From contig CBDATR010000024.1 of the NCBI GenBank assembly GCA_965200155.1, forward strand, positions 224,001-288,000: 64,000 nt of DNA, read 5' to 3'. Of this stretch, positions 8,627-48,230 are shown one piece after another. A model generated the notes under the pieces. It had not been told where the DNA came from. It did not search any database and saw only the letters and a program-made list of their open reading frames with translations. Positions within the stretch are counted from its first letter, which is position 1, and each line of letters begins with the position of its first letter. The translations under genes were made by a program, and so were the position numbers. Source of the DNA: Nitrosopumilaceae archaeon. GTDB taxonomy: Archaea > Thermoproteota > Nitrososphaeria > Nitrososphaerales > Nitrosopumilaceae.

Positions 8627-8696
8627 ATAGTGGTCACAATAAGTCTTTGACATGTAAGACGGGGATGATATATGGCAAATGTATAGCGCCCACCAT
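8627..8696. mobile_element. two orphan copies of the IS5/tnpB-element terminal repeat; the second is cut by the IS481-like copy
   Basis: TATAGTGGTCACAATAAGTCTTTG and GTATAGCGCCCACCAT match element ends at 34716, 46783, 38204 and 48230. Confidence 0.6.
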
Positions 8697-9667
8697 TGTA
8701 ATGTATGAAAAGTCGGTCCGCTAGTCATTGGCATCCAGCTCCATCCATTTTGCATCATTTGCCCTAATTGTCTGGGTCGCCTTTTTATTCCTGAAGCGGC
8801 GTTTCGCCGTTATCTATCCAGTGAGAAGTGCAATCTTCTCTCATTGTAGTAGTCTAAATAATCCTGGAGACTGTCATAATGCCATATCTCATTGGACTCT
8901 TAAATAAGAGTCCCCTCGTCCTCAATCATTCCATGGAAGCGCTTCAGTTTGCCATTTGTCTGCGGGTGGTATGGTCTGGAATTGATTAGTATGATTCTTG
9001 ATCCAGCAGTTCTTCCTCGAATAGTGTTGGTTTCCAGTTCTTTTTGCCCTTTTATTGTCCTATGAAACACGCGCCGTTATACGAGATGCAGGGGCGCCGA
9101 ATCGTTTCATTGCCGATCTCAGTAGAGTGGCGTTCTCTGAGGTTGTATGCTAGAATAGTGCCGCCCCGACTATACACCTGGATGCATCATCTATGAGATT
9201 CAGTCCCTCCTGAAGCGCTCATCTTTCATGGCATGCCAGTGCCACATTGCATTGGAATATTTATGCTCATAGCGTACCCACTCTGACTTTGCAGGTGATG
9301 AGACTGCCGTACCGTTCTTTTTCATTATGCAATATACTGCGCGATATGTATCATGTCTCAGTCTCTTTGCAATACGTACTACTCCGGCTGGATCCTTGCT
9401 GTATGCTTCAGTTACCATTCGTATCTGGGTGGCGGTGATTGGTATCATAGGCCTGCCCATCTTGAGTCATTCCCGTCCTCTGGTTCACAATCTTCGTACG
9501 TGTCTTGTTTCAGGTCTTGAGCTATGTTGGTGGCGGCAACACCTCTTGTCTTGCTGAATCGCTTCGTGATTCTCTTGATTCCTCTGTTATTCTCTTTATC
9601 ATCTGGCAATGAAATAGTCAGCTACTGTACGCCGGATCCTAAGCGGACTTACTTTTCGTACTATTGA
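8697..9667 (-). mobile_element. IS481-like element copy 1, frameshifted transposase
   Basis: Imperfect TIRs GTACGAAAAGTAAGTCCGCT / GTATGAAAAGTCGGTCCGCT; integrase-core fragments (WVRYEHKYSNAMWH, DDASR, PYHPQTNGKL, YYNERRLH); near-identical copies at 21259, 28878 and 35925. Confidence 0.85.
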
Positions 9668-13932: not shown

Positions 13933-14889
13933 TCAGTACTTGTCAAGACCAGTTGGTTCTGGTTGCAATGATGATTCCATTTCGAACTGTTCTGGTAGTT
14001 GGTCTATGATCCTGTCTGACGCTATTCCCACATAGACCAACCGCTCTATTATGGCGCGTACCATGTCACCATTCACGCCCTCTAGTGGATAATTCGTGAT
14101 GCCACTCTCTGCATTGGAACGATACTTGTATCTGTCAACGAACCATCCTACAGGCGTTCTACCATTGACTGAGTAATGGATTGTTGGTATGTTATCGTAT
14201 ACTAACACGTTATCCAGTAGTAGTTTGGATTGATCAACTATTCCCTTTGGTCCGGGACCGTCATTGGGTTTCTTACCAAAGGCTATTTTTTCGGGAGCGT
14301 CAGGTATTGGAACCAGCGACTCGCCCAGATTGTAACGGGGGCCGGTCTCATAATTGAGATGCAAGTCAGCTAGCTGTCTACCTGCTTTCATGAATGAGTG
14401 GAAATCGGGCGCCATGGGCATGTTTGGAAAACCGCGAACGAGGAATACCTGGTACTTGGTACGATAGCCGGGGTGGTGTAGAATCCCATACGTATAGTAG
14501 AATATATCCTCCTTCGTTATAGCATCATCATGGTATCGGTTCTGGTATTGTTTCAGCGCCCAGTCTGTAATGTTATCATTCATTTCGTCACCATCATTGT
14601 TGTTATTTTGTTTCTTTACTTTCATGGGAAAGCACTGGGACGGTGCAATGTTGTTGAGATCCGGCGTCATTCCCGTTATGAATACTGAGAACTCGCCCTT
14701 GATCTTGTTGGGTACTATTATCGCCAGGTTCTCGTATGGTGGACTGGTGGACTTACCTTGTGGGTGTTCTCATTATTTTTGTTCTTTGTACGCAAGGGTA
14801 AACAACGAGATGTTTCATGTACATGGATGTCCGGTGTTATATCGGTGACTAATGTTGAGAATTCACCCTTTATTTTATTAGGTACCAAG
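13933..14889 (-). pseudogene. second, 5'-less copy of the Type ISP enzyme C-terminus with two variant ~40-aa modules
   Basis: ORF 13933-14670 is nearly identical to 16162-16830; upstream modules VPNKIKGEFSTLVTDITPD and IIVPNKIKGEFSVFITGMTPD. Confidence 0.8.
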
Positions 14890-14958
14890 GGGACTCTTAA
14901 AGAAGAGTCCAACAAGGACTGTCATCAAATCGTACTATAACCGGATACACCCTGGCCA

Positions 14959-16161: not shown

Positions 16162-17079
16162 CTAGGGAATAGGCGCCTTGTAGTACTTGTCCAGGCCGGT
16201 TGGTTCTGGTTGCAATGATGATTCCATTTCGAACTGTTCTGGTAGTTGGTCTATGATCCTGTCTGACGCTATTCCCACATAGACCAACCGCTCTATTATG
16301 GCGCGTACCATGTCGCCATTCACGCCCTCTAGTGGATAATTCGTGATGCCACTCTCGGCATTGGAACGATACTTGTATCTATCAACGAACCATCCTACAG
16401 GCGTTCTACCATTGACTGAGTAATGGATTGTTGGCATATTATCGTATACTAACACGTTATCCAGTAGTAGTTTGGATTGATCAACTATTCCCTTTGGTCC
16501 GGGACCGTCATTAGGTTTCTTACCAAAGGCTATCTTCTTTGGAGCGTCAGGTATTGGAACCAGCGACTCGCCCAGGTTGTAACGGGGGCCGGTCTCATAA
16601 TTGAGATGCAAGTCAGCTAGCTGTCTACCTGCTTTCATGAATGAGTGGAAATCGGGTGCCATGGGTATGCTTGGTAAACCACGAACGAGAAATACCTGGT
16701 ACTTGGTACGATAGCCGGGGTGGTGTAGAATCCCATACGTATAGTAGAATATGTCTTCCTTTGTTATTGAATCATCATGGTATTGGTTCTGGTATTGTTT
16801 GAGCGCCCAGTCTGTAATGTTATCTTTCATGGAGTCATCGTCTCCTGTACTTTCAGTGGGAATACCTGACCATTTGGTACTACTTGTAGATCCGGTATCA
16901 TTCCCGTTATGAAGCAACTCCACTCGCCCTTGATCTTGTCGGATACTATTATCGCCAGATTTTCCTGTGTAATTACCTTCTCCGGTACAGGACCTAGATT
17001 TTGGTCTGCCTTTACATGGTGAGTGGTGAGTGGTGAGTGGTGAGTGGTGAGTGGTGAGTGGTGAGTGGTGAGTGGTGAG
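16162..17079 (-). CDS. C-terminal frame of the Type ISP enzyme, out of frame with the main ORF at the present repeat count
   Basis: KEDIFYYTYGILHHPGYR, GRQLADLHLNYE, YSVNGRTPVGWFVDRY. Codon-by-codon check shows the frame is open up to 17079, with TAA at 17080-17082. Confidence 0.75.
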   Translation of the reverse strand, partial: LTTHHSPLTTHHSPLTTHHSPCKGRPKSRSCTGEGNYTGKSGDNSIRQDQGRVELLHNGNDTGSTSSTKWSGIPTESTGDDDSMKDNITDWALKQYQNQYHDDSITKEDIFYYTYGILHHPGYRTKYQVFLVRGLPSIPMAPDFHSFMKAGRQLADLHLNYETGPRYNLGESLVPIPDAPKKIAFGKKPNDGPGPKGIVDQSKLLLDNVLVYDNMPTIHYSVNGRTPVGWFVDRYKYRSNAESGITNYPLEGVNGDMVRAIIERLVYVGIASDRIIDQLPEQFEMESSLQPEPTGLDKYYKAPIP

Positions 17080-20000
17080 TTACCTACCTCTTGTTCATTC
17101 TCTGCATTTTGTTTCTTTACTTTCATGGGGAAGCACTGGGATGCCTCGTGAATGTGTAAGTCCGGTGTGGTGTCTGTGACAAATGTTGAGAATTCACCTT
17201 TTATTTTGTCCGGTACCATGATGGACACGTTCTTGGTGTCTGGGCGTGGGTAGAATAAGGGTATACGGTATGTGCTGGTGATAAAAGTCGTATCAAAATA
17301 GAGATATTGTTTGAAAAATGGTCTATACAGAGACATTCTAATGTTGGTATCATGGAACATTAGTGGTTCATCTAGTTTCCGTATACTATTCTGAAGATCT
17401 TCATTCCATGCAACATATTTCTTATCCTTGTCAAAATTTTTCTTCAAGTCCTGCTTGGCACAATGTTCTATTGTTCTTCTCATATTCTCTTCCAGGTCTT
17501 GGGGCGATGCGTTGTATACCCAAACATCTCTGTGTGTTTTCAATCCGTTAGAGTACATATGAAATAGAGTATTGACTGTCTTACCACGTTTTCCCTCTTT
17601 ACTTCCCATTGAAGTCATGGAATCCCATCGTTCACTGGTATCACCACGCTGTTCCAACCAGTCATGATAACGGTCTGGTGTTATAATTTGCCAGTCTTGT
17701 ATTCCGGCGATGGAGCCATATTCTTTTATCTTTTCTAGTTTCTTATCCCTGTCCAGATAATCACCAATGTCGTGGTAGTGGATGGTGCAAGATTGTTTGG
17801 CCGGGTTCTTAACTAGTATGGTTATGGCTGTTGCCTCACGGGAGCCACCGCCAAACACATTGCCTGCCTCGCGCCTTCGTTGTTCTCCCTGTGTTTTTGC
17901 ATCACCTCGTAAATTGAAACAGTAGACATCCGTGAACTCCATTCCAAGACAGGCGCGTATGCCTGCTTCACTATTCCCAGTGATATATGCGGATGGTGTG
18001 ATTAAACCGATAACTCCGGAATCACCTATTCTTTCTGATACCCAGCGGAGGGCCTTGATGTAGGAGTTGTATAACCCTCTAGTGTTCCCTTTGGGCGCGT
18101 TTTTGATGTATGTCTTTGACACACTATCTCCCAGATACGGATGCGAGACATTCTTGTTATCCTCATTGGCCGTCTTCTGACCGCCACTATATGGCGGATT
18201 CCCCACTATGACATTGACGTAATCCATATTCTGCCGTTTCACCCTAGTCATGGCTTCCTCCAGGGAATCATCTGTAATCTTGATCTGCTTCTTACGCTGT
18301 TCGGAATCCAGCCTGTATGAGGGGCTCTGTGCGAATGTATCCAGGTATGATATCCCGCCAAATGGAACATACTCCCCGCTCTTTTTCTGGTATGATGCCT
18401 CAATATTGGACATGGCGACATAGAATGCCGGTAACATTATTTCATTCGCGTAAATATCATTCTGGTACTTGTCAGGTAGTGCATCATCACTGATCATCCC
18501 TCGCTCTATTAACTGGGCAAGGAATATCCCGGTACCGGTGAACGGGTCCAGCACCTTTACTGCTCTATCATTGAATGTTTTCCCAAACTCCGATTCTAGT
18601 ACATGAGAGACTGATGAAATAATGAAATTCACGATTTCGACTGGTGTGTGTACGATTCCATGTTTGTCCGCGGACTTTTTATCCGAGCCAATGAAGAATG
18701 CGTCATATATGGCGCGCAGGAAATCCTGCTTGGCATCCGGCTCCTTGAATAGTTCAATGTCTGCCTGTATGCCCGTATAGAATGCCTCGAACTGTTCTAG
18801 TTGTCCCTGTATGTTTAGTCGTTGCATGGTATTATCGAATGCTGATGCCACCGGGTTAGCATTCTTGGGGAACATTACATTGAATACTCTGGACATTACA
18901 GCATGCTGTGATAATGCACGAATGGTCTGCTCATATGTCAACGTGAATCCGACTATATGTTTCAGGTTCTCGTGTAATTGTTCAATGATGGGCGCAGTTT
19001 CCGGCTCAATTTTGATTCGCTGTTTCAGTTTGGTCTCTATTATTACGGCTTGCTCCCCTAGTCGCTTGCCCATGTTGGCGTGGTAACTGGCATCGCCAAG
19101 ACTCAGTATGACATTCTGTACATCCTTTAACAACTTGTCACTGAGTCCTGCCCCCAGTGTACGAATAATCCAGTCATTCAGTCTTGGTGGTATTTCTGAC
19201 GGATCCGGTGGCTCATGTTTACCACTCTTTCCCGACTTGGACAGTACATACTTGTTCAGTAGCTTTTGCAGTCCATCATCATGTGCTGTGATCGCACGTA
19301 ATATCTTGCTTATCTGCTCGTACCGTGTGTTCCTTTTCAACACATGATGTGGATCATCACCCTTCAAGACTGGGATGGGGACTATAACGTAACCTGTTTT
19401 CTTTCCCTCTGATTTTCGCATTACTCTACCAATACTTTGTATTATGTCGATGGGTGAGTTCTTGGGTTCCATGAATACAACGGCATCCAAGGCTGGAACG
19501 TCCACGCCCTCCTGCAAGCACCTGGCATTACTGAGTATACGAATCTCCTTTGGATCACTATCACTATTTCGTAACCAGTCTATCCGCGCTCCCCTGTCCA
19601 GCGAGTTGGTAGAACCATCAACATGCCTCGTTACAGTCTTGTAACCGTCCAGATCGGGATCAGTCTTTAGTAGTCTCTCGCTTAAATTATCAAAGCTTAA
19701 TGTTTCCTTCGTGATTTTATCAAGCTTGAGTGGTTTCTTTGCCTTGTCCATGTTCCTGCCATGATTGGAGAACAACTTTGACGCTTTTATGGTGTTGAAG
19801 AATACCATCACCCTCTGTAAGGGCCGGAATTCCTTAGTATCACCATCATATGTGATCGCCTTACAGATACTGTTCACTTTTGACATGTAGTCTATGTCCA
19901 TATCCTCGTAATCCTTGAGATCATCACCATGTTCCCTTGCAGCCTTGATGATTTCACCATACGCATCATTCTCATCAACCTCTGGTAGTATTATTTTGAA

Positions 20001-21258: not shown

Positions 21259-22308
21259 TCAATAGTACGAAAAGTAAGTCTGCTTAGGATCCGGCGTACA
21301 GTAGCTGACTATTTCATTGCACAAGCCATATGGTAAAGAGGATAACAGAGGAATCAAGAGAATCGCGAAGCGATTCAGCAAGACAAGAGGTGTTGCCGCA
21401 ACCAACATAGCTCAAGACCTGAAACAAGACACGTACGAAGATTGTGAACCAGAGGACGGGAATGACTCAAGATGGGCAGGCCTATGATACCAATCACCGC
21501 CACCCAGATACGAATGGTAACTGAAGCATACAGCAAGGATCCAGCCGGAGTAGTACGTATTGCAAAGAGACTGAGACATGATACATATCGCGCAGTATAT
21601 CGCATAATGAAAAAGAACGGTACGGCAGTCTCATCACCTGCAAAGTCAGAGTGGGTACGCTATGAGCATAAATATTCCAATGCAATGTGGCACTGGCATG
21701 TCATGAAAAGATGAGCGCTTCAGTGGGGACTGAATCTCATAGATGATGCATCTCATTATTGCGATATTATATTTAACGCGCATTTTACGCTTCAGGGGGG
21801 ACTGAATCTCATAGATGATGCATCCAGGTGTATAGTCGGGGCGGCACTATTCTAGCATACAACCTCAGAGAACGCCACTCTACTGAGATTGGCAATGAAA
21901 CGATTCGGCGCCCCTGCATCTCGTATAACGGCGCGTGTTTCATAGGACAATAAAAGGGCAAAAAGAACTGGAAACCAACACTATTCGAGGAAGAACTGCT
22001 GGATCAAGAATCATACTAATCAATTCCAGACCATACCACCCGCAGACAAATGGCAAACTGAAGCGCTTCCATGGAATGATTGAGGACGAGGGGACTCTTA
22101 TTTAAGAGTCCAATGAGATATGGCATTATGACAGTCTCCAGGATTATTTAGACTACTACAATGAGAGAAGATTGCACTTCTCACTGGATAGATAACGGCG
22201 AAACGCCGCTTCAGGAATAAAAAGGCGACCCAGACAATTAGGGCAAATGATGCAAAATGGATGGAGCGGGATGCCAATGACTAGCGGACCGACTTTTCAT
22301 ACATTACA
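21259..22308 (+). mobile_element. IS481-like element copy 2
   Basis: Same TIRs and sequence as 8697-9667, plus an extra 72 bp at 21716-21824. Confidence 0.87.
21716..21824. repeat. 37-bp duplication flanking a unique 35-bp insert
   Basis: CGCTTCAG(T/G)GGGGACTGAATCTCATAGATGATGCATC at 21716 and 21788; present once in the three sibling IS copies. Confidence 0.92.
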
Positions 22309-22724
22309 ATAATTTTAGACTGTTCCAGAAGTGGCGCATCTCTTCTTTCAAGAATCCTGATCAGCTTACCGTTCGCGCCTATAATCATGGCTAGGCTGTC
22401 CGGCAGTTTCTGGATGTGCCATCCGGCCGTTATTGGACAAATTAGTATTTATGCTTACGGTTATACTCTTTCTTTGTGCAAGCTAGACACTTCTTTGATG
22501 ATTCTATCTCTTCATCCTTCTTCTTGCGCGTAGCCTCTAACCCTGCATACTGAGCTTTTTGCATCTTGATGAGCGCATCGTTCTCCTTGGATGTTTCTCT
22601 TTATCTCATCCATAACTTTGGCATATTCCTCGCGTAGTATCTTGGCTACCGGGTCTTCCATCTGATTGCATTTACTTAATCAGGATGATGTTTAGTGAGT
22701 GTGTTGGGCGACCTAAACGGTTAC
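22309..22724 (-). mobile_element. 5' remnant of an IS66-type family 2 element, truncated by IS481-like copy 2
   Basis: TIR GTAACCGTTTAGGTC at 22724-22710, followed by a decayed Lys/Glu-rich coiled-coil-like frame. Confidence 0.6.
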
Positions 22725-28877: not shown

Positions 28878-29841
28878 TCAATAGTACGAAAAGTAAGTCC
28901 GCTCAGGATCCGGCGTACAGTAGCTGACTATTTCATTGCACAAGCCATATGGTAAAGAGAATAACAGAGGAATCAAGACAAAAGAGGCGTTGCCACAACC
29001 AACATAGCTCAAGACCTGAAACAAGACACGTACGAAGATTGTGAACCAGAGAACGGGAACGACTCGAGTAAAGATGGGCAGGCCCATGATACCAATCACC
29101 GCCACCCAGATACGAATGGTAACTGAAACATACGGCAAGGATCCCGCCGGAGTAGTACGTATTGCAAAGAGGCTTTAGACAGAATTACAATATATCGCGC
29201 AGTATATCGCATAATGAAAAAGAACGGTACGGCAGGATCATCACCTGCAAAGTCAGAGTGGGTACGCTATGAGCGTAAATATTCCAATGCAATGTGGCAC
29301 TGGCATGTAATGAAAGATGAGCGCTTCAGGGGACTGAATCTCATAGATGATGCATCCAGGTGCATCGTCGGGGCGGCACTATTCTAGCATACAACCTCAG
29401 AGAACGCCACTCTACTGAGATTGGCAATGAAACGATTCGGCGACCCTGCATCTTGGATAACGGCGCGTGTTTCGTAGGACAATAAAAGGGAAAAAAGAAC
29501 TGGAAACCCACTATTCTAGGAAGAACTGCTGGATCAAGACATCATACTAATCAATTCCAGACCACATCACCCGCAGACAAATGGCAAACTGGAGCGCTTC
29601 CATGGAATGATTGAGGACGAGGGGACTCTTATTTAAGAGTCCAATGAGATATGACATCATGACAGTCTCCGGGATTATGTTGACTACTACAATGAGAGAA
29701 GGTTGCACTTCTCACTGGATATAGATGACGGCGAAACACCACTCCAGGAATAAAAAGGCGACCTAGACAATTAGTGCAAATGATGCAAAATGGATGGAGC
29801 GGGATGCCAATGACTAGCGGACCGACTTTTCATACATTACA
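28878..29841 (+). mobile_element. IS481-like element copy 3
   Basis: TCAATAGTACGAAAAGT...ACTTTTCATACATTACA. Confidence 0.87.
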
Positions 29842-29865
29842 TACAACGCCACAATGAGTAAAGAC

Positions 29866-29894: not shown

Positions 29895-30890
29895 ATGGAA
29901 AATATACGACTTGACAGCCTAGAAGGTGTCGGACCAGTAACTACAAGAAAACTGTCCGATGCCGGTGTCCACAACATAATGGACCTCATAGTACGTGGAC
30001 CGGTAGAAATTGCAGACATAGCAGGTATGGAAAAAGATACCGCCGAGAAGATCGTGAACAAGGCTCGCCAGCACTTATCAGAGGGCGGCATGCTTGCCAA
30101 AGAATTCGTCAGTGCAGCAGACATCTATAAGCGGCGCCAAGAGATAGGCCGCATAAGTACAGGTACTGAGTGCTTGAATAAACTCTTTGAGGGAGGTATT
30201 GAAACGCAGGCACTTACAGAAGTATACGGTGAATTTGGATGTGGCAAAACACAATTTTGTCACACACTATGCGTCATGGTACAAAAGTCCATAGAGGAAG
30301 GTGGTCTTGAAGGAGGAGTTTTGTACATAGACTCTGAGAACACATTTCGTCCAGAAAGGATAGTCTCCATAGCTCAGGCAAACGGTATGGATCCCCAAAG
30401 GGTCTTGGATAACATCACGGTAGCCCGAGCATATAACAGCTCTCACCAAGTACTCATATTGGAAGAGGCCGGTACGGTAATTCAGGAAAGTAACGTAAAG
30501 TTGCTTGTTGCAGACTCTGCTGTCGGCCTATTTCGATCAGAGTACCTAGGTCGCGGGACACTATCCGAGAGACAGCAAAAACTAAACCACTTTGTACACC
30601 TGTTATCACGTATTGCCGAGACATACAACTGCGCCGCAGTTGCGACAAATCAGGTCATGTCCTCACCGGACGTATTCTTTGGAGATCCAACAAAGCCCAT
30701 AGGCGGCAATGTTGTAGCACACACATCCACTTATCGTGTGTACTTTAAAAAATCAGGCAAGAAAAGAATAGCACGTATGGTAGACAGTCCACACCATCCA
30801 GAAGAAGAAGTTATCTTCGCCATAAGTGAGGCGGGAGTAGTAGATCCCGAGGAACCAAAGAGGACTAAAAAATCCAAAGATGCAGCATAG
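29895..30890 (+). CDS. radA: DNA repair/recombination protein RadA
   Basis: N-terminal HhH domain, GEFGCGKTQ, YIDSENTFRPER, GRGTLSERQQ, GGNVVAH. Confidence 0.97.
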   Translation: MENIRLDSLEGVGPVTTRKLSDAGVHNIMDLIVRGPVEIADIAGMEKDTAEKIVNKARQHLSEGGMLAKEFVSAADIYKRRQEIGRISTGTECLNKLFEGGIETQALTEVYGEFGCGKTQFCHTLCVMVQKSIEEGGLEGGVLYIDSENTFRPERIVSIAQANGMDPQRVLDNITVARAYNSSHQVLILEEAGTVIQESNVKLLVADSAVGLFRSEYLGRGTLSERQQKLNHFVHLLSRIAETYNCAAVATNQVMSSPDVFFGDPTKPIGGNVVAHTSTYRVYFKKSGKKRIARMVDSPHHPEEEVIFAISEAGVVDPEEPKRTKKSKDAA

Positions 30891-30947
30891 AATACTTCGT
30901 ACTTGTTTTTACATTGAGCATGTTGCAGTTTATTAGGTACAATTTTC

Positions 30948-31039
30948 GTATGAGTTCACCTGTGTCTAAATTTACGCATAACTGATCGCGACAGTTAATG
31001 TGATTTGTGCATAAGATTCCGGAAGACGTGAACTCATAC
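30948..31039 (-). mobile_element. MITE family 1 (92 bp)
   Basis: TIRs; TSD CAATTTTC. Confidence 0.95.
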
Positions 31040-31787: not shown

Positions 31788-32514
31788 CCTAGAATTGACA
31801 AAGTGGTGCGCAGAATACGATTGGTTGCGCCAGTTACCAGCTAACTATGGCCGGGTACAATACTACAGGCGTCTGTCGCGTGGAGACGCACGTACGAGGA
31901 TTGTTCTGATTATATTCCGCACCGGCGCGACAATGAAAGAATCATACTGTCTTGTGTTGCGCCACCAATTAGACGTGGTGAGTTCGAGTTAGGCTTGTGC
32001 GGCCTTGGTATCGCGAGAACCATGAACAATCTATCATTCCCGGGACATGCGCTCATTCAAAATCTTTGAGCGCACCAATAAAAGAACGAGGCCGGGAGAA
32101 CGCAAATTTGAGATTCATATCAACATACGAGTGAAACAACCAAAACATGTCAAGACCGATGTCATTCGCGGTGGCTGTCACGGCAGATACCAATGATAGA
32201 ACAGCAGTACATAACATGAGGCATCGCGGGATATTACGGGAGAACCGTTACCTCCAGAGCATTAAATCTCAAAAGGGTAAGCGCAGGAAGCGAGAGATCG
32301 AGAAGAAAATCATTCAATTACTACAGAAACATAGCTAACGACTCCATGAATAGAATAGTCCATGTCATCACCAAAGGTGTAGACAAGGTGGTCGTCGAAA
32401 ACCTGTCGGTTACAGGAATGACTGCTCACGGGGAGAACCGCAAGAGAACAATGAATCGAATGATGTGCGATAACCGCGCTGGCACATTCTTGCACAAGCT
32501 GAAGCAGAAATGTG

Positions 32515-32606
32515 GTATGAGTTCACGTCTTCCGGAATCTTATGCACAAATCACATTAACTGTCGCGATCAGTTATGCGTAAATTTAGACACAGGTGAAC
32601 TCATAC
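32515..32606 (+). mobile_element. MITE family 1 (92 bp) inside tnpB
   Basis: TIRs; TSD GAAATGTG. Confidence 0.95.
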
Positions 32607-32932
32607 GAAATGTGAGATACTGGGAGTGGAACGGGAGGTCATACGTGCGCAGTATAACAGCCAGACCTGTCATGTGGGCACCATTCCAGAGAACCACGTT
32701 TAACTAGGGATGTATTCAGATGCACCCGATGTAACCAGGAGAGTGACGCGGACATTAATGCCGCGTACAGTAACCGGTTTCCTTGCACGGGGTGGCAGAG
32801 CGTGTCGTCCGGAGGCGTCAAGGCGGGAATAATGGTGACAAGCCAAAACCATGTACCGTTCAGGAACGAGGGTAGCGCGCGGCGAGCCAACTAGGCGCCA
32901 TAAAAATCATAGTCAAAGACTTATGGTGACTG

Positions 32933-33721
32933 CTATAATACGTGTGTACTTGACTGATGTCGACGTGAAGATCTGACAATGGCTGCAGCTGCGGCCCCGG
33001 CATATATACCGCCATCTATATTCACAACAGTAAGACCCAAGGCACAACTCTGTAACATGGAACCCAGTGCAGATACTCCTCCCGCACCATAGCCATACCC
33101 CACAGATACAGGTATGCCTATTACTGGAATACTGAGCATGGACGTCGCTACTGTAGCCAGTGCACCCTCCATTCCGGCCGCAACCACGACACAGTCTGCA
33201 TCTTTATCCACAATCTCCTGGAGGGCCGATAGTGTTCGGTGAAGTCCTGCCACACCTACATCATATCTACACAATACATCACAACCCATAGCAACACACA
33301 TGAGTCTCACTTCCTCAGCCACAGGTATATCCGAGGTTCCGCCGGTAAGAATTCCTATTAACCCACCGCAAGTGGCAGGCTTGTCATTATATACCAGTAT
33401 GGTGGAGCAGTTGCGCCCGGTCTCCACACATAACCCCAAACTCATGGCAAACTCTACTACATCATCGTAATGATCTTTGCAAATTCTAGATACTACCAGA
33501 GGATCATCACGTGGATATTCCTCCATTATTGACTTGATATCAGCCAACTGCTTGGATTCAGCAAAAAGTACCTCCGGGATATTTCTACGACGGGCCCTAC
33601 CCAGATCTAACCTAGCCATGTTCTTTATGTTCTCAATAGAATGTAATGACAGCATCTTTTTTGCTTCTTCAACGGTAACATTGCCAGACTGGAGTGATCT
33701 GAGTATATGATCCAGTTCCAA
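32933..33721 (-). CDS. larB: nickel-pincer cofactor biosynthesis protein LarB (AIR carboxylase-like)
   Basis: GTSDIPVAEE, DVGVAGLHR, AGMEGAL, PVSVGYG, VVNIDGG. Confidence 0.92.
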   Translation of the reverse strand: MELDHILRSLQSGNVTVEEAKKMLSLHSIENIKNMARLDLGRARRRNIPEVLFAESKQLADIKSIMEEYPRDDPLVVSRICKDHYDDVVEFAMSLGLCVETGRNCSTILVYNDKPATCGGLIGILTGGTSDIPVAEEVRLMCVAMGCDVLCRYDVGVAGLHRTLSALQEIVDKDADCVVVAAGMEGALATVATSMLSIPVIGIPVSVGYGYGAGGVSALGSMLQSCALGLTVVNIDGGIYAGAAAAAIVRSSRRHQSSTHVL

Positions 33722-34715: not shown

Positions 34716-35924
34716 TATAGCGGTCACCATAAGTCTTTGAGAACATGGCACCTCGTTCCTGGACAGTACCTGGCTTTGGCTTGTCACCATTATTCCCGCC
34801 CTGACGCCTCCGGTTGGTCGGGAAATGGTGCCCCACCCCCGGACGACACGCTCTGCCACTCCTACAGGGAAACCGGTTACTAAACGCCGCGTTGATATCG
34901 GCGTGAAATTCCTGGTTACATATTGAATGTGTCCCTAGTTGATCGTGACTTGTTGCCAACGTGTCCACACACGTGATAGGTCTGGCTCGTTGGGCGGGTA
35001 AACCGCCCCCTCGTGTATCTCGCTGGCACAGCCACCAATTCAATCCCCAGTGCCTCGCACTTTTGTACTACTTTCCGGCGGAACTAGCCTACCCGGTTCT
35101 CACGCATGGAGCGGTTCATTGTTCTTTTCCGGTTCCCGCCATGACTGGTCATTCGCTTTCGGTGATAAATCCTCTAGTATTACCTTGTCCACACCTTCGG
35201 TGACCGCGCGGACTACTCTATTCATGGAGTCGTTCGCGATATTATTCGCTTTCTGTCGTAGTTGAATGATTTTCTTCTCAATCTTTCGCTTCCTGCGCTT
35301 ACCTTTTCGCGTTCTAATACTCTGGAGTGCGCTAATCTCCCGTAATATGGAACAATGTCTCATGTTGGGAATCATCGTTCTGCCATTCGTGTCAGCTGTT
35401 ACATCTAGATGTTTCCTGCCGACACCCACGCCGCGAACAACGCCGGTCGATGGTTTCTCCCGTATATTGATGTGAATCTCGAATTGACGCTCCCTACTAT
35501 TGGTTACTTGTTCCACTAGAATGAGCGTATGTCCCAAGAATGATCGATTGGTTTGGTTGTTCTCACCACACCAAAACCGCACAGGTTCAACTCTAACTCA
35601 CCGCGGCGGATTGGTGGTCTTACACATGATAGTATGATCTGTCACGCCGGTGTGGTATGTAATTAGAATGATCCTCGTACGCGCGCCTGCACGCGACAGA
35701 CGCCTGTAGTATGGCACCCCAGCCATAGTTAGCTTGTAACTCACGCACCCATTCAATATCACGGCGCCACTTTGTCAATTCCAGGAACAAACAATTCTTG
35801 TTGGACGGGTAAACCGTCCCCTGATAGCCGTTCTAGAACGCGGTAGCTGATTCACGTATAATGAAACGCCCTTCATTAGGCCATATGGTGATCTTGAACT
35901 GTTTTTGACCTTGGCCGGATCATG
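34716..35924 (-). mobile_element. tnpB: tnpB pseudo-element B, 5'-truncated by IS481-like copy 4
   Basis: GVGVGRKHL, VILEDL, HADINAA; near-identical to 46783-48230. Confidence 0.85.
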
Positions 35925-36861
35925 TCAATAGTACGAAAAGTAAGTCCGCTCAGGATCCGGCGTACAGTAGCTGACTATTTCATTGCACAAGCCATATGGT
36001 AAAGAGAATAACAGAGGAATCAAGACAAAAGAGGCGTTGCCACAACCAACATAGCTCAAGACCTGAAACAAGACACGTACGAAGATTGTGAACCAGAGAA
36101 CGGGAACGACTCGAGTAAAGATGGGCAGGCCCATGATACCAATCACCGCCACCCAGATACGAATGGTAACTGAAACATACGGCAAGGATCCCGCCGGAGT
36201 AGTACGTATTGCAAAGAGGCTTTAGACAGAATTACAATATATCGCGCAGTATATCGCATAATGAAAAAGAACGGTACGGCAGGATCATCACCTGCAAAGT
36301 CAGAGTGGGTACGCTATGAGCGTAAATATTCCAATGCAATGTGGCACTGGCATGTAATGAAAGATGAGCGCTTCAGGGGACTGAATCTCATAGATGATGC
36401 ATCCAGGTGCATCGTCGGGGCGGCACTATTCTAGCATACAACCTCAGAGAACGCCACTCTACTGAGATTGGCAATGAAACGATTCGGTGCCCCTGCATCT
36501 TGGATAACGGCGCGTGTTTCGTAGGACAATAAAAGGGAAAAAAGAACTGGAAACCCACTATTCTAGGAAGAACTGCTGGATCAAGACATCATACTAATCA
36601 ATTCCAGGCCATACCACCCGCAGACAAATGGCAAACTGGAGCGCTTCCATGGAATGATTGAGGACGAGATTTGGCATTATGACAGTCTCCGGGATTATGT
36701 TGACTACTACAATGAGAGAAGATTGCACTTCTCACTGGATATAGATAACGGCGAAACACCACTCCAGGAATAAAAAGGCGACCCAGACAATTAGGACAAA
36801 TGATGAAAAATGGATGGAGCGAGATACCAATGACTAGCGGACCGACTTTTCATATATTACA
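35925..36861 (+). mobile_element. IS481-like element copy 4
   Basis: Same TIRs; lacks the GGGACTCTTA hairpin insert found in copies 1-3. Confidence 0.87.
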
Positions 36862-37269
36862 TGTCATAGTGATTACTAACTTGGATCCAAGCATTAACAT
36901 CTGAGATTTTTTAAACAAACTTTATGGTATTCACCGACAATGCCAAGTACGTCCAGCGGAAGGCTATTTGGCTTTGATCATGCGTGGAATTGAAAAGGCC
37001 AACCATAAAGGAGGGTGCTCCCTACCAGTATGCTGTGGGCATGTTACATGACACTGAGAATGGCATTAGGTATGAGATACAGGCAGGTATCCGGATTCCT
37101 TGCAGGACTACTAGAAGGGCACCAAACCCCGCACTACTCCACAATATACAGACACGGAAAAGATCTTGACATCGACAAGGGGAATGACATGATTGTCGGC
37201 ACAGACAAAAAGCTGACGAGAGCCATGATTGTTGACTCGGCCGGCCTTGAATCGTGGCGAGTGGATTAG

Positions 37270-46782: not shown

Positions 46783-48230
46783 ATAGCTGTCACCATAAGT
46801 CTTTGAGAACATGGCACCTCGTTCCTGTACAGTACACGGGTTTGGCTTGTCACCATTATTCCCGCCCTGACGCCTCCGGTTGAGTGGGGAACGGTTCCCC
46901 GTCCCGGACGACACGCTCTGCCACTCCTACAGGGAAACCGGTTACTAAACGCCGCGTTGATATCGGCGTGAAATTCCTGGTTACATATTGAATGTGTCCC
47001 TAGTTGATCGTGACTTGTTGCCAACGTGTCCACACACGTGATAGGTCTGGCTCGTTGGGCGGGTAAACCACCCCCTCGTGTATTTCGCTGGCACAGCCGC
47101 CAATTCAATTCCTAGTGCCTCGCACTTTTGTACTACTTTCCGGCGGAACTCGCCTACCCGGTTCTCACGCATGGAGCGGTTCATTGTTCTTTTCCGGTTA
47201 CCACCATGACTGGTCATTCGCTTTCGGTGATAAATCCTCTAGTACTACCTTGCCTGCACCTTCAGTGACCGCGCGGACCATTCTATTCATGGAGTCGTTC
47301 GCGATATTATTCGCTTTCTGTCGTAGTTGAATGATTTTCTTCTCAATCTTTCGCTTCCTGCGCTTACCTTTTCGCGTTCTAATACTCTGGAGTGCGCCAA
47401 TCTCCCGTAATATGGAACGATGTCTCATGTGGTGAATCATCGTTCTGCCATTCGTGTCAGCTGTTACAGCTAGATGTTTCCCGCTGACATCCGCGCCGCA
47501 AACAACGCCGGTCTATGGTTTCTCCCGTATATTGATGTGAATCTCGAATTGACGCTCCCTACTATTGGTTACTCGTTCCACTATCCTGAATGAGCGCATG
47601 TCCCGGGAATGATCGATTGGTTTGGTTGTTCTCACCACACCAAAACCGCACAGGTTCAACTCGAACTCACCGCGACGGATTGGTGGTCTTACACATGATA
47701 GTATGATCTGTCACGCCGGTGTGGTATGTAATTAGAATGATCCTCGTACGCGCGCCTGCACGTGACAGACGCCTGTAGTATGGCACCCCAGCCATAGTTA
47801 GCTTGTAACTCACGCACCCATTCAATATCACGGCGCCACTTTGTCAATTCCAGGAACAAACAATTCTTGTTGGACGGGTAAACCGTCCCCTGATAGCCGT
47901 TCTAGAACGCGGTAGCTGATTCACGTAAAGTGGATCATCCTTCTCAAGATTGTATGGTGACTTGGCGGACTCGTTCTTATTCTTCACCTTGGCCGGATCA
48001 TGTTTCAATTCTAGAGTGGTTCCGGGTATGTAGTAATCACCAAGACTGATCTCGGATACCGCCCTGTCATACACGTAATCGGACGTGTGACCGAATATCT
48101 TGGTGCGCCGGGAAAACTCCTTATTAGTTTTCAACAGTATAATGACGGTCCGGGTTATGCCGCCCACCATCTGCTGATTCTATAAAAGTACGGTCCCATA
48201 CCCGGCAAAGACTTATGGTGGGCGCTATAC
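46783..48230 (-). mobile_element. tnpB: TIR-bounded tnpB pseudo-element C (full length, frameshifted)
   Basis: VVLEDL, KYT[RGWFTRPT]SQTYHVCG, HADINAA; inverted ends CACCATAAGTCTTTG / CAAAGACTTATGGTG. Confidence 0.87.

Follow-up and report, generated by a model that had tools for sequence, protein, structure and literature searches.

A family of ultra-small, mobile-looking hairpin units in a Nitrosopumilaceae archaeon

The segment at 34813–35820 raises the question of what the short hairpins within it are, and how pieces of DNA of this size might move. DNA this small cannot hold two separate transposase-binding ends of the usual type, so its movement has been an open question since the small dispersed repeats (SDRs) of cyanobacteria were described. 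The window, by which we mean the whole stretch of 64,000 nucleotides that was analyzed, is C24:224001–288000 of an assembly of 2.38 Mb (47% G+C, 51 contigs, 87.6% complete). It is archaeal by gene content, with a RadA/Rad51 recombinase at 29895–30890 that has UvrA/UvrB, a malate/lactate dehydrogenase and a Type ISP restriction enzyme as neighbors, and the sequencing runs that contain it carry the label of sponge metagenomes. The genome is rich in insertion sequences (IS): element X, IS481-like and 1 kb long, is present in about 90 copies, element T, 1214 bp long and encoding only TnpB, in about 30 copies or fragments, and element H, an IS with a DDE_Tnp_4 transposase, is also present.

The hairpin units and their hosts

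An initial annotation had listed seven hairpin strings in the window. All seven were found exactly where it had placed them, as were the variants at 46879, 47054 and 9553. The units and the elements that carry them are as follows (an arrow within a motif marks the junction with a unit).

34716–35929, minus strand: copy A of element T, a 1214-bp TnpB-only element of the IS200/IS605 type with an OrfB_IS605 match and a broken reading frame
46783–48003, minus strand: copy B of element T, sharing 93.5% identity with copy A across the BLAST match, with units at about 46879, 47054 and 47869–47889
35800–35820, minus strand: unit at site T1, 21 nt, flanks CAG/AAG, near the 5' end of the TnpB gene, in frame as GTVYPSN
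34989–35009, minus strand: unit at site T2, 21 nt, flanks GAG/GAG, splitting the conserved YT↓SQTC motif of TnpB and adding eight codons in frame
34813–34838, minus strand: unit at site T3, 26 nt, decayed, flanks CGG/CGG, some 100 nt inside the right end of the TnpB element
32871–32891, plus strand: unit at site T4, 21 nt, decayed, flanks GAG/TAG, in a divergent T copy (about 31788–32960)
21259–22312, 28878–29842, 35925–36862 and about 8695–9667: copies of element X, IS481-like, about 1 kb, with an rve_3 domain
22091–22114, plus strand: unit at site X3, 24 nt, flanks GAG/GAG, placing an in-frame TAA in the integrase-core domain of the X copy at 21259–22312
29622–29645, plus strand: X3 unit in a second X copy (28878–29842)
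8891–8914, minus strand: X3 unit in a third X copy (about 8695–9667)
36567–36773, plus strand: empty X3 site in the X copy at 35925–36862, with the frame ...RFHGMIEDEIWHYDSL... and no unit
21359–21379, plus strand: unit at site X5, 21 nt, flanks AAG/AAG, tail AGC
9553–9573, minus strand: variant of the X5 unit with one mismatch
14890–14913, plus strand: unit of 24 nt, flanks AAG/AAG, bordering a duplicated 3' fragment of a Type ISP restriction gene

The segment 34813–35820 is thus the interior of T copy A. The initial annotation did not note that T copies A and B, with hairpins at 34813–35820 and 46879–47889, carry the same three hairpins at the same places, so the six hairpins represent three insertions that were inherited with the element. 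At the position corresponding to T4, a sister T copy on contig C5 holds a similar unit, flanked there by GAG/GAG. Among the X copies none has an intact full-length frame, and the longest, of 278 aa, ends at the stop codon of the hairpin.

The units form one family of 21–27 nt with the ends 5' (G/A)GG(G/A)C ... G(T/C)CCAA(C/T) 3' and with inner stems and loops that differ. Each consists of one 5' purine, a stem of 6–11 bp with conserved outer pairs (GGRC/GYCC), a variable center and an AAY tail, and two subfamilies can be told apart, GGGGCGG..CCGCCCAAC and GGGACT..AGTCCAAC. The shared termini, GGGRC...GYCCAAY, with variation only in the inner stem and loop, do not support the earlier proposal that the units are recognized by structure rather than by sequence. 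When the unit lists were read by eye, both sides of the outer stem were seen to change together, for example GGGGCGG/CCGCCC versus GGGACGG/CCGTCC, and also GGGGCAGGGAAC/GTTCCCTGCCC. Folded as single-stranded DNA, five of the seven units in the window shared one shape, with one free 5' base, a stem of 6–8 bp and three free 3' bases (z from −2.8 to −5.4); the units at 34813 and 32871, which are decayed in the window copy, gave z values of −0.35 and +0.41.

When the genome was compared with itself by BLAST, the lengths of indels peaked at 21, 24, 26 and 27 nt, and the indels that could form hairpins were confined to a limited set of sites. A search for the family that required a stem of 6 bp or more yielded 119 matches, of which 65 are flanked by an exact 3-nt repeat, compared with 14 and 0 in the reversed (not complemented) genome, which bears out the genome-wide enrichment that the initial annotation had asked to see. 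The end pattern by itself matched 83 times, against four for the pattern read backwards, and the matches were divided over the two strands of the whole genome as 42 and 41. Many of the family matches are copies inherited inside two multi-copy insertion sequences; together the matches form 47 flank clusters, of which approximately 25 were counted as believable separate sites, and we put the number of independent insertion events at about 25, not hundreds. The units lodge in insertion sequences, in spacers and in a few genes, and are among the smallest mobile-looking elements known.

Two of these genes are on other contigs. The one on C22 encodes an 806-aa Type ISP-like methylase and is intact, reading in frame through its unit (...VK-GAAKPPNK-NPAK...); in seven paralogues precisely these 24 bp are absent. 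On C10, a fibronectin-type-III (fn3) gene also contains a unit. In the window, the unit at 14890 adjoins a truncated gene fragment in the antisense orientation. The segments 13933–14887 and 16162–17218 represent a duplication of the 3' end of a 1463-aa Type ISP restriction gene together with the downstream ORF, and this duplication ends exactly at the 14890 hairpin; the genome has about eight paralogues of such genes. The units are also of consequence for annotation: they split conserved motifs of TnpB and of the integrase-core transposase, and one adds eight residues to an otherwise intact restriction-modification gene.

Filled and empty sites, target and arrays

Empty sibling sites had been claimed for six of the seven hairpins, and this was confirmed by BLAST of the joined flanks, in which the unit at 14890 was the one with no sibling copy. 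Among the T copies, T1 (35800) was filled in 21 and empty in 2–3, T2 (34989) was filled in 20 and empty in five, T3 (34813) was filled in 19 and empty in six, and T4 (32871) was filled in two and empty in 25. Among the X copies, X3 (22091) was filled in 44, doubly filled in two and empty in 42, while X5 (21359) was filled in three of the copies that span it and empty in nearly all others. Two X copies, at C9:167728–167778 and C25:87–137, have the 27-bp unit-plus-triplet twice in tandem, resulting either from a second insertion at the duplicated target or from slippage. Within a few bases of X5, other X copies (e.g., C24:93022–93150) have unrelated insertions of 11, 13 and 22 nt that form no hairpin, making this a local hot spot for indels.

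The direction of the change was given by the protein-family profiles. An empty T copy, with the frame ...AVPVKYTSQTCHVCGH..., matched the Cas12f1-like_TNB profile with 37 residues to 37 positions (39.6 bits), whereas the filled T copy of the window needed 46 residues for 35 positions (25.7 bits; ...YT-RGRFTRPT-SQT...). Similarly, the rve_3 profile ran through positions 3–63 across the empty X3 site of the window copy at 35925–36862, but stopped at position 29 in a filled X copy, to which the unit adds ...EDE-GTLI-stop. In both families the profile is continuous where the unit is absent and broken where it is present, which makes the hairpins derived insertions. An ancestral state with hairpins, which the initial annotation had named as the finding that would overturn its reading, does not agree with profiles that are unbroken in the empty state. 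Its description of very short units, well below the size of MITEs and with 3 bp of the target duplicated, is supported: judged by the siblings and by the profiles, these are real insertions.

Site T3 is more complex than the others. The units found there among the T copies are 21, 22, 24, 25, 26 or 27 nt long, and in a tree of the 3' region of element T, poorly resolved with only about 110 columns, filled copies occurred in three deep lineages and empty copies in two. Such a scatter of filled and empty states points either to repeated hits at T3 or to precise loss of units.

Empty siblings have the triplet once, and filled copies have it on both sides. In a tally of the flanks of 24 sites, one row of which (s21) has an erroneous end coordinate, ten had an exact 3-nt repeat and 18 matched in at least two of the three bases, the exact duplication thus missing at 14. 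The triplet is mostly NAG, and the preceding base is C at 15 of the 24 sites, compared with a background of 0.23. One identical 21-mer is found at T2 with GAG, at T3 with CGG and in an array on C43 with CAG, showing that the triplet is part of the target and not of the unit.

Units also occur side by side, in arrays of two to four different units in direct orientation, with separators that are uniform within each array.

C5:64419: array with separator GAG, with four sibling copies that lack the whole array
C43:107242: array with separator CAG
C10:486719: array with separator AAG
C35:25380: array with separator CAT
C9:130689: array with separator AAG

Besides CAT, separators of AAA also occur. 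A filled site ends in ..AAC↓NAG and thereby recreates the preferred target, in keeping with the single triplet found throughout each tandem array. At all eight sites that lie inside recognizable coding sequence (X3, X5, T1–T4, the methylase on C22 and the fn3 gene on C10) the unit is in the sense orientation; this bias is suggestive only, as the two-sided binomial probability of about 0.008 holds if the sites are independent and they fall in only four host genes.

The search for the family outside this genome was negative. In 30 relatives, the end pattern did not rise above each genome's own control count; neither the exact 21-mer nor a degenerate 24-mer matched in the species-representative genomes (genome_contigs), and the exact 21-mer had no match in metagenome_contigs. 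A 22-mer that is repeated four times in one relative lies within an IS, has no duplicated flanks and seems a coincidence. No description of such units was found in the literature on archaea, and the available text of PMC4084955 and PMC6563490, supplements aside, mentions none. Taking these observations together, we regard the units as a lineage-specific family of ultra-small mobile DNA, 21–27 bp long, and assign a probability of about 0.65 to this explanation as a whole. Against it weigh the 14 sites where the duplication is not exact, the scattered states at T3, the modest number of independent events, and the negative outcome of the searches for an enzyme and for polymorphism described below.

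How the units might move

A unit enters an (A/T)C↓NAG target, of which 3 bp become duplicated. Several early insertions entered the TnpB-only IS at four sites and the IS481-like IS at two, and then multiplied passively as these host elements spread, a process that accounts for most copies. A trans-acting enzyme may recognize the conserved ends and make a 3-bp staggered cut. Short repeats on either side of a hairpin are well known to allow slippage, and such slippage between the 3-bp repeats, stimulated by the hairpin, may excise units precisely. In its most specific form, the proposal is that a trans-acting archaeal enzyme, none of the transposases recognized here, would insert single 21–27-nt hairpins via a 3-bp staggered cut at C↓NAG, with a preference for the non-template (sense) strand of genes under transcription and for sites where it had inserted before. 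We offer this version tentatively, as it is more likely wrong than right; if it is true, no smaller mobile element with target duplication would be known, and archaea would have their first example.

The assembly was searched for a source of such an enzyme. A longer element with the same ends and an HUH/RAYT transposase, as the initial annotation had envisaged, was not found there: the Y1/RAYT profile (PF01797) had no match in a six-frame search of the 87.6%-complete genome, while 6 of 14 control genomes matched, and a genome scan for parent elements with unit ends and equal triplets gave three pairs, none of them real. Two pairs were repeat artefacts, one being a tandem double unit and the other a couple of independent X3 units at a distance of 5.6 kb, and the third spanned the genes for cytochrome oxidase and ribosomal protein S19e.

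The resident insertion sequences were considered as well. Element H is IS5/Harbinger-like (e.g., C24:97988–99633 and C43:71882–73427), with 49 six-frame DDE_Tnp_4 matches and many open frames of 390–414 aa. Its ends are AGACCGTATGCGCA.../...TGCGCATAAGGTCT (AGACC...GGTCT), and it makes 3-bp duplications, the flanks being ANT in all cases and identical in 18 of 23 two-ended copies; H looks currently active. It is the only element found in the genome that makes 3-bp duplications, but its ends and its ANT target differ from those of the units, and it was rejected as a parent. Element X was rejected as the mover on similar grounds, its ends (TCAATAG.../...ATTACA) and its target duplications of 15–16 bp being unlike those of the units. 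Among the IS duplications examined, 8 bp for IS66, 15–16 bp for X and 3 bp with ANT for H, none fits the units. A second, small DDE_Tnp_4 family is also present. On C9, at about 69442–92000, there is a CRISPR locus with Cas1 in a 555-aa open frame and one 20-mer that recurs at least 287 times at spacer distance; the repeat of this array is unlike the units, and a CRISPR link was discarded. The only reverse transcriptase in the genome is a broken RVT_1 locus at C50:22300–22781, in two pieces with a TAA inside.

Several other origins of the units were weighed. Template-switch copying would dispense with a transposase altogether: a nascent strand would jump at a microhomology of a few bases (..C-NAG) to an existing unit, copy it and jump back, leaving a unit with an apparent 3-bp duplication. 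The targets do resemble the 3' end of the unit plus triplet, AC↓NAG, with 4–5 matching bases at X3, T2 and T4, and this origin would fit triplets that are nearly always NAG, the well-known stalling of replication by hairpins, and the lack of an enzyme in the searches of the genome. However, the same 21-mer is flanked by GAG, CGG and CAG, so that only 1–2 bases of homology would have been used there; separators of CAT and AAA exist; and conserved ends around a freely varying center are what protein recognition of the termini predicts. On balance, we consider template switching unlikely. The initial annotation had also allowed that the units are excision scars, such as the footprints that larger transposons with inverted-repeat ends would leave on imprecise excision. 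A flanking duplication around a short palindrome is indeed what hAT or Tc1 footprints look like, but the assembly yielded no longer element with such ends, the identical 21-mers at separate sites would require identical imprecise excisions, and footprints would not be expected to line up in arrays of as many as four. We consider this source highly improbable.

The hairpins could also be modules maintained by selection and not mobile as such, for instance stems of an omega RNA at T2 and T3 or tolerated protein loops, with the empty copies being deletions. T3 is some 100 nt away from the right end of element T, in the region where the guide RNAs (omega RNAs) of TnpB are encoded, and T copies that are only 66–67% identical overall still have a 27-nt hairpin at T3, with paired changes; a role of this hairpin in the guide RNA of the element is possible, as a conjecture. 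Against selection as the general explanation stand the profiles that are unbroken in the empty state, the presence of the family in unrelated hosts and spacers, and the X3 unit, which puts a stop codon into a transposase. Rfam at its gathering thresholds and tRNA scans also returned nothing in the window, and we find this explanation improbable. Alternatively, the units could be removed or skipped at the RNA level, as archaeal bulge-helix-bulge mini-introns or by translational bypass of the T4 gene 60 or mitochondrial byp type, with matching take-off and landing codons. This would suit hairpins flanked by matching triplets, the X3 triplet being in frame with a stop four codons later, and the combined length of unit and triplet, frequently 24, 27 or 30 nt; but some units measure 22, 25 or 26 nt, and the triplets, codon-aligned at T1 and X3, are not so at T2 (frame +1) or T3 (frame +2). 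With the three T sites in three different frames, the triplets are unlikely to be take-off and landing codons in general. By inspection, the flanks differ between sites and offer no partner for the 4-bp helix between the two 3-nt bulges of a bulge-helix-bulge motif. Contigs from two metatranscriptome libraries and two other runs were compared with the window. Those of the RNA libraries cover 32871–32891 and 34813–34838 without a gap, the listed contig pieces having no row over 34989–35009, and among the joints and long deletions listed for the four runs none removes a hairpin. The suggestion that the units might be spliced out thus receives no support from the RNA-library contigs; this is not disproof, because DNA carry-over is possible and contigs drop rare forms. 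Removal or bypass at the RNA level nevertheless strikes us as very improbable.

Relation to known repeats

The closest known analogues of the units appear to be the cyanobacterial SDRs. In 2008, Elhai et al. reportedly described eight such families, SDR1–8, of 21–27 nt in Nostoc punctiforme and its relatives. These are said to have conserved ends and a variable hairpin center, and to occur within other mobile elements and side by side; their mobility was reportedly inferred from filled and empty sites, with the enzyme unknown. By this description, the archaeal units have the same size of 21–27 nt and the same conserved ends with a variable palindromic center. They differ in that their host is an archaeon and not a cyanobacterium, in duplicating 3 bp of the target cleanly, with C↓NAG preferred, and in showing no association with heptamer repeats.

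Rickettsia palindromic elements are likewise palindromic repeats that sit in frame within intact protein genes, as the unit in the 806-aa gene does here, but they are bacterial and about 100–150 bp long. Another group of short palindromes is formed by the REPs, to which the 22-bp SMAG repeats of Stenotrophomonas belong. The units resemble REPs and REPINs (PMC3116915) in being short palindromes whose head of four bases is conserved (on the other strand the units start with GTTG, ahead of the stem, where REPs have GTAG), and in a similar size of about 20–35 nt. In contrast to the REP/REPIN–RAYT system, the units had no Y1/RAYT gene in the search of the 87.6%-complete genome, form direct tandem arrays and not inverted doublets, have a target duplication, and are found in many copies inside IS genes, with eight sites in coding sequence instead of an extragenic location. 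The SDRs of Nostoc are themselves cited and briefly described in PMC3116915 and PMC2884548.

The units are like MITEs in being non-coding, flanked by target duplications and spread within one genome. The genome also has a 92-bp MITE, for which the BLAST depth across the genome is about 550–585; the units are four times shorter, and among the IS elements examined here no autonomous element shares their ends. None of the identities considered, REP/RAYT, a MITE of a resident IS or a bulge-helix-bulge intron, matches the features of the units, and we file these archaeal units, with their clean 3-bp duplication and defined target, as a variant of a known, poorly understood kind. They present a clean case for studying the mechanism, as they combine conserved ends, a 3-bp duplication, a target motif and self-targeted arrays with dozens of filled and empty sibling pairs, in a sponge-dwelling archaeal host for which both DNA and RNA libraries exist.

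The contigs of the four runs showed no presence/absence polymorphism at four hairpin sites of the stretch, among the matches listed. At 30940–31039, each of the four runs, whether from DNA or from RNA, includes a contig in which 30939 is joined to 31040 and exactly 100 bases are skipped. These correspond to the 92-bp MITE plus an 8-bp duplication, so this MITE copy is absent from those populations and is a live insertion polymorphism.

Lastly, a 2.1-kb repeat with a gene for a 546-aa fibronectin-type-III protein is present at C34:160050–160600 and at four sibling loci. The gene is followed by about 550 nt of non-coding DNA with repeated ..TTCTAGCCGCCCAAY motifs, and the same tract contains unit-like pieces of about 43 nt, which are possibly larger, nested relatives of the hairpin units.
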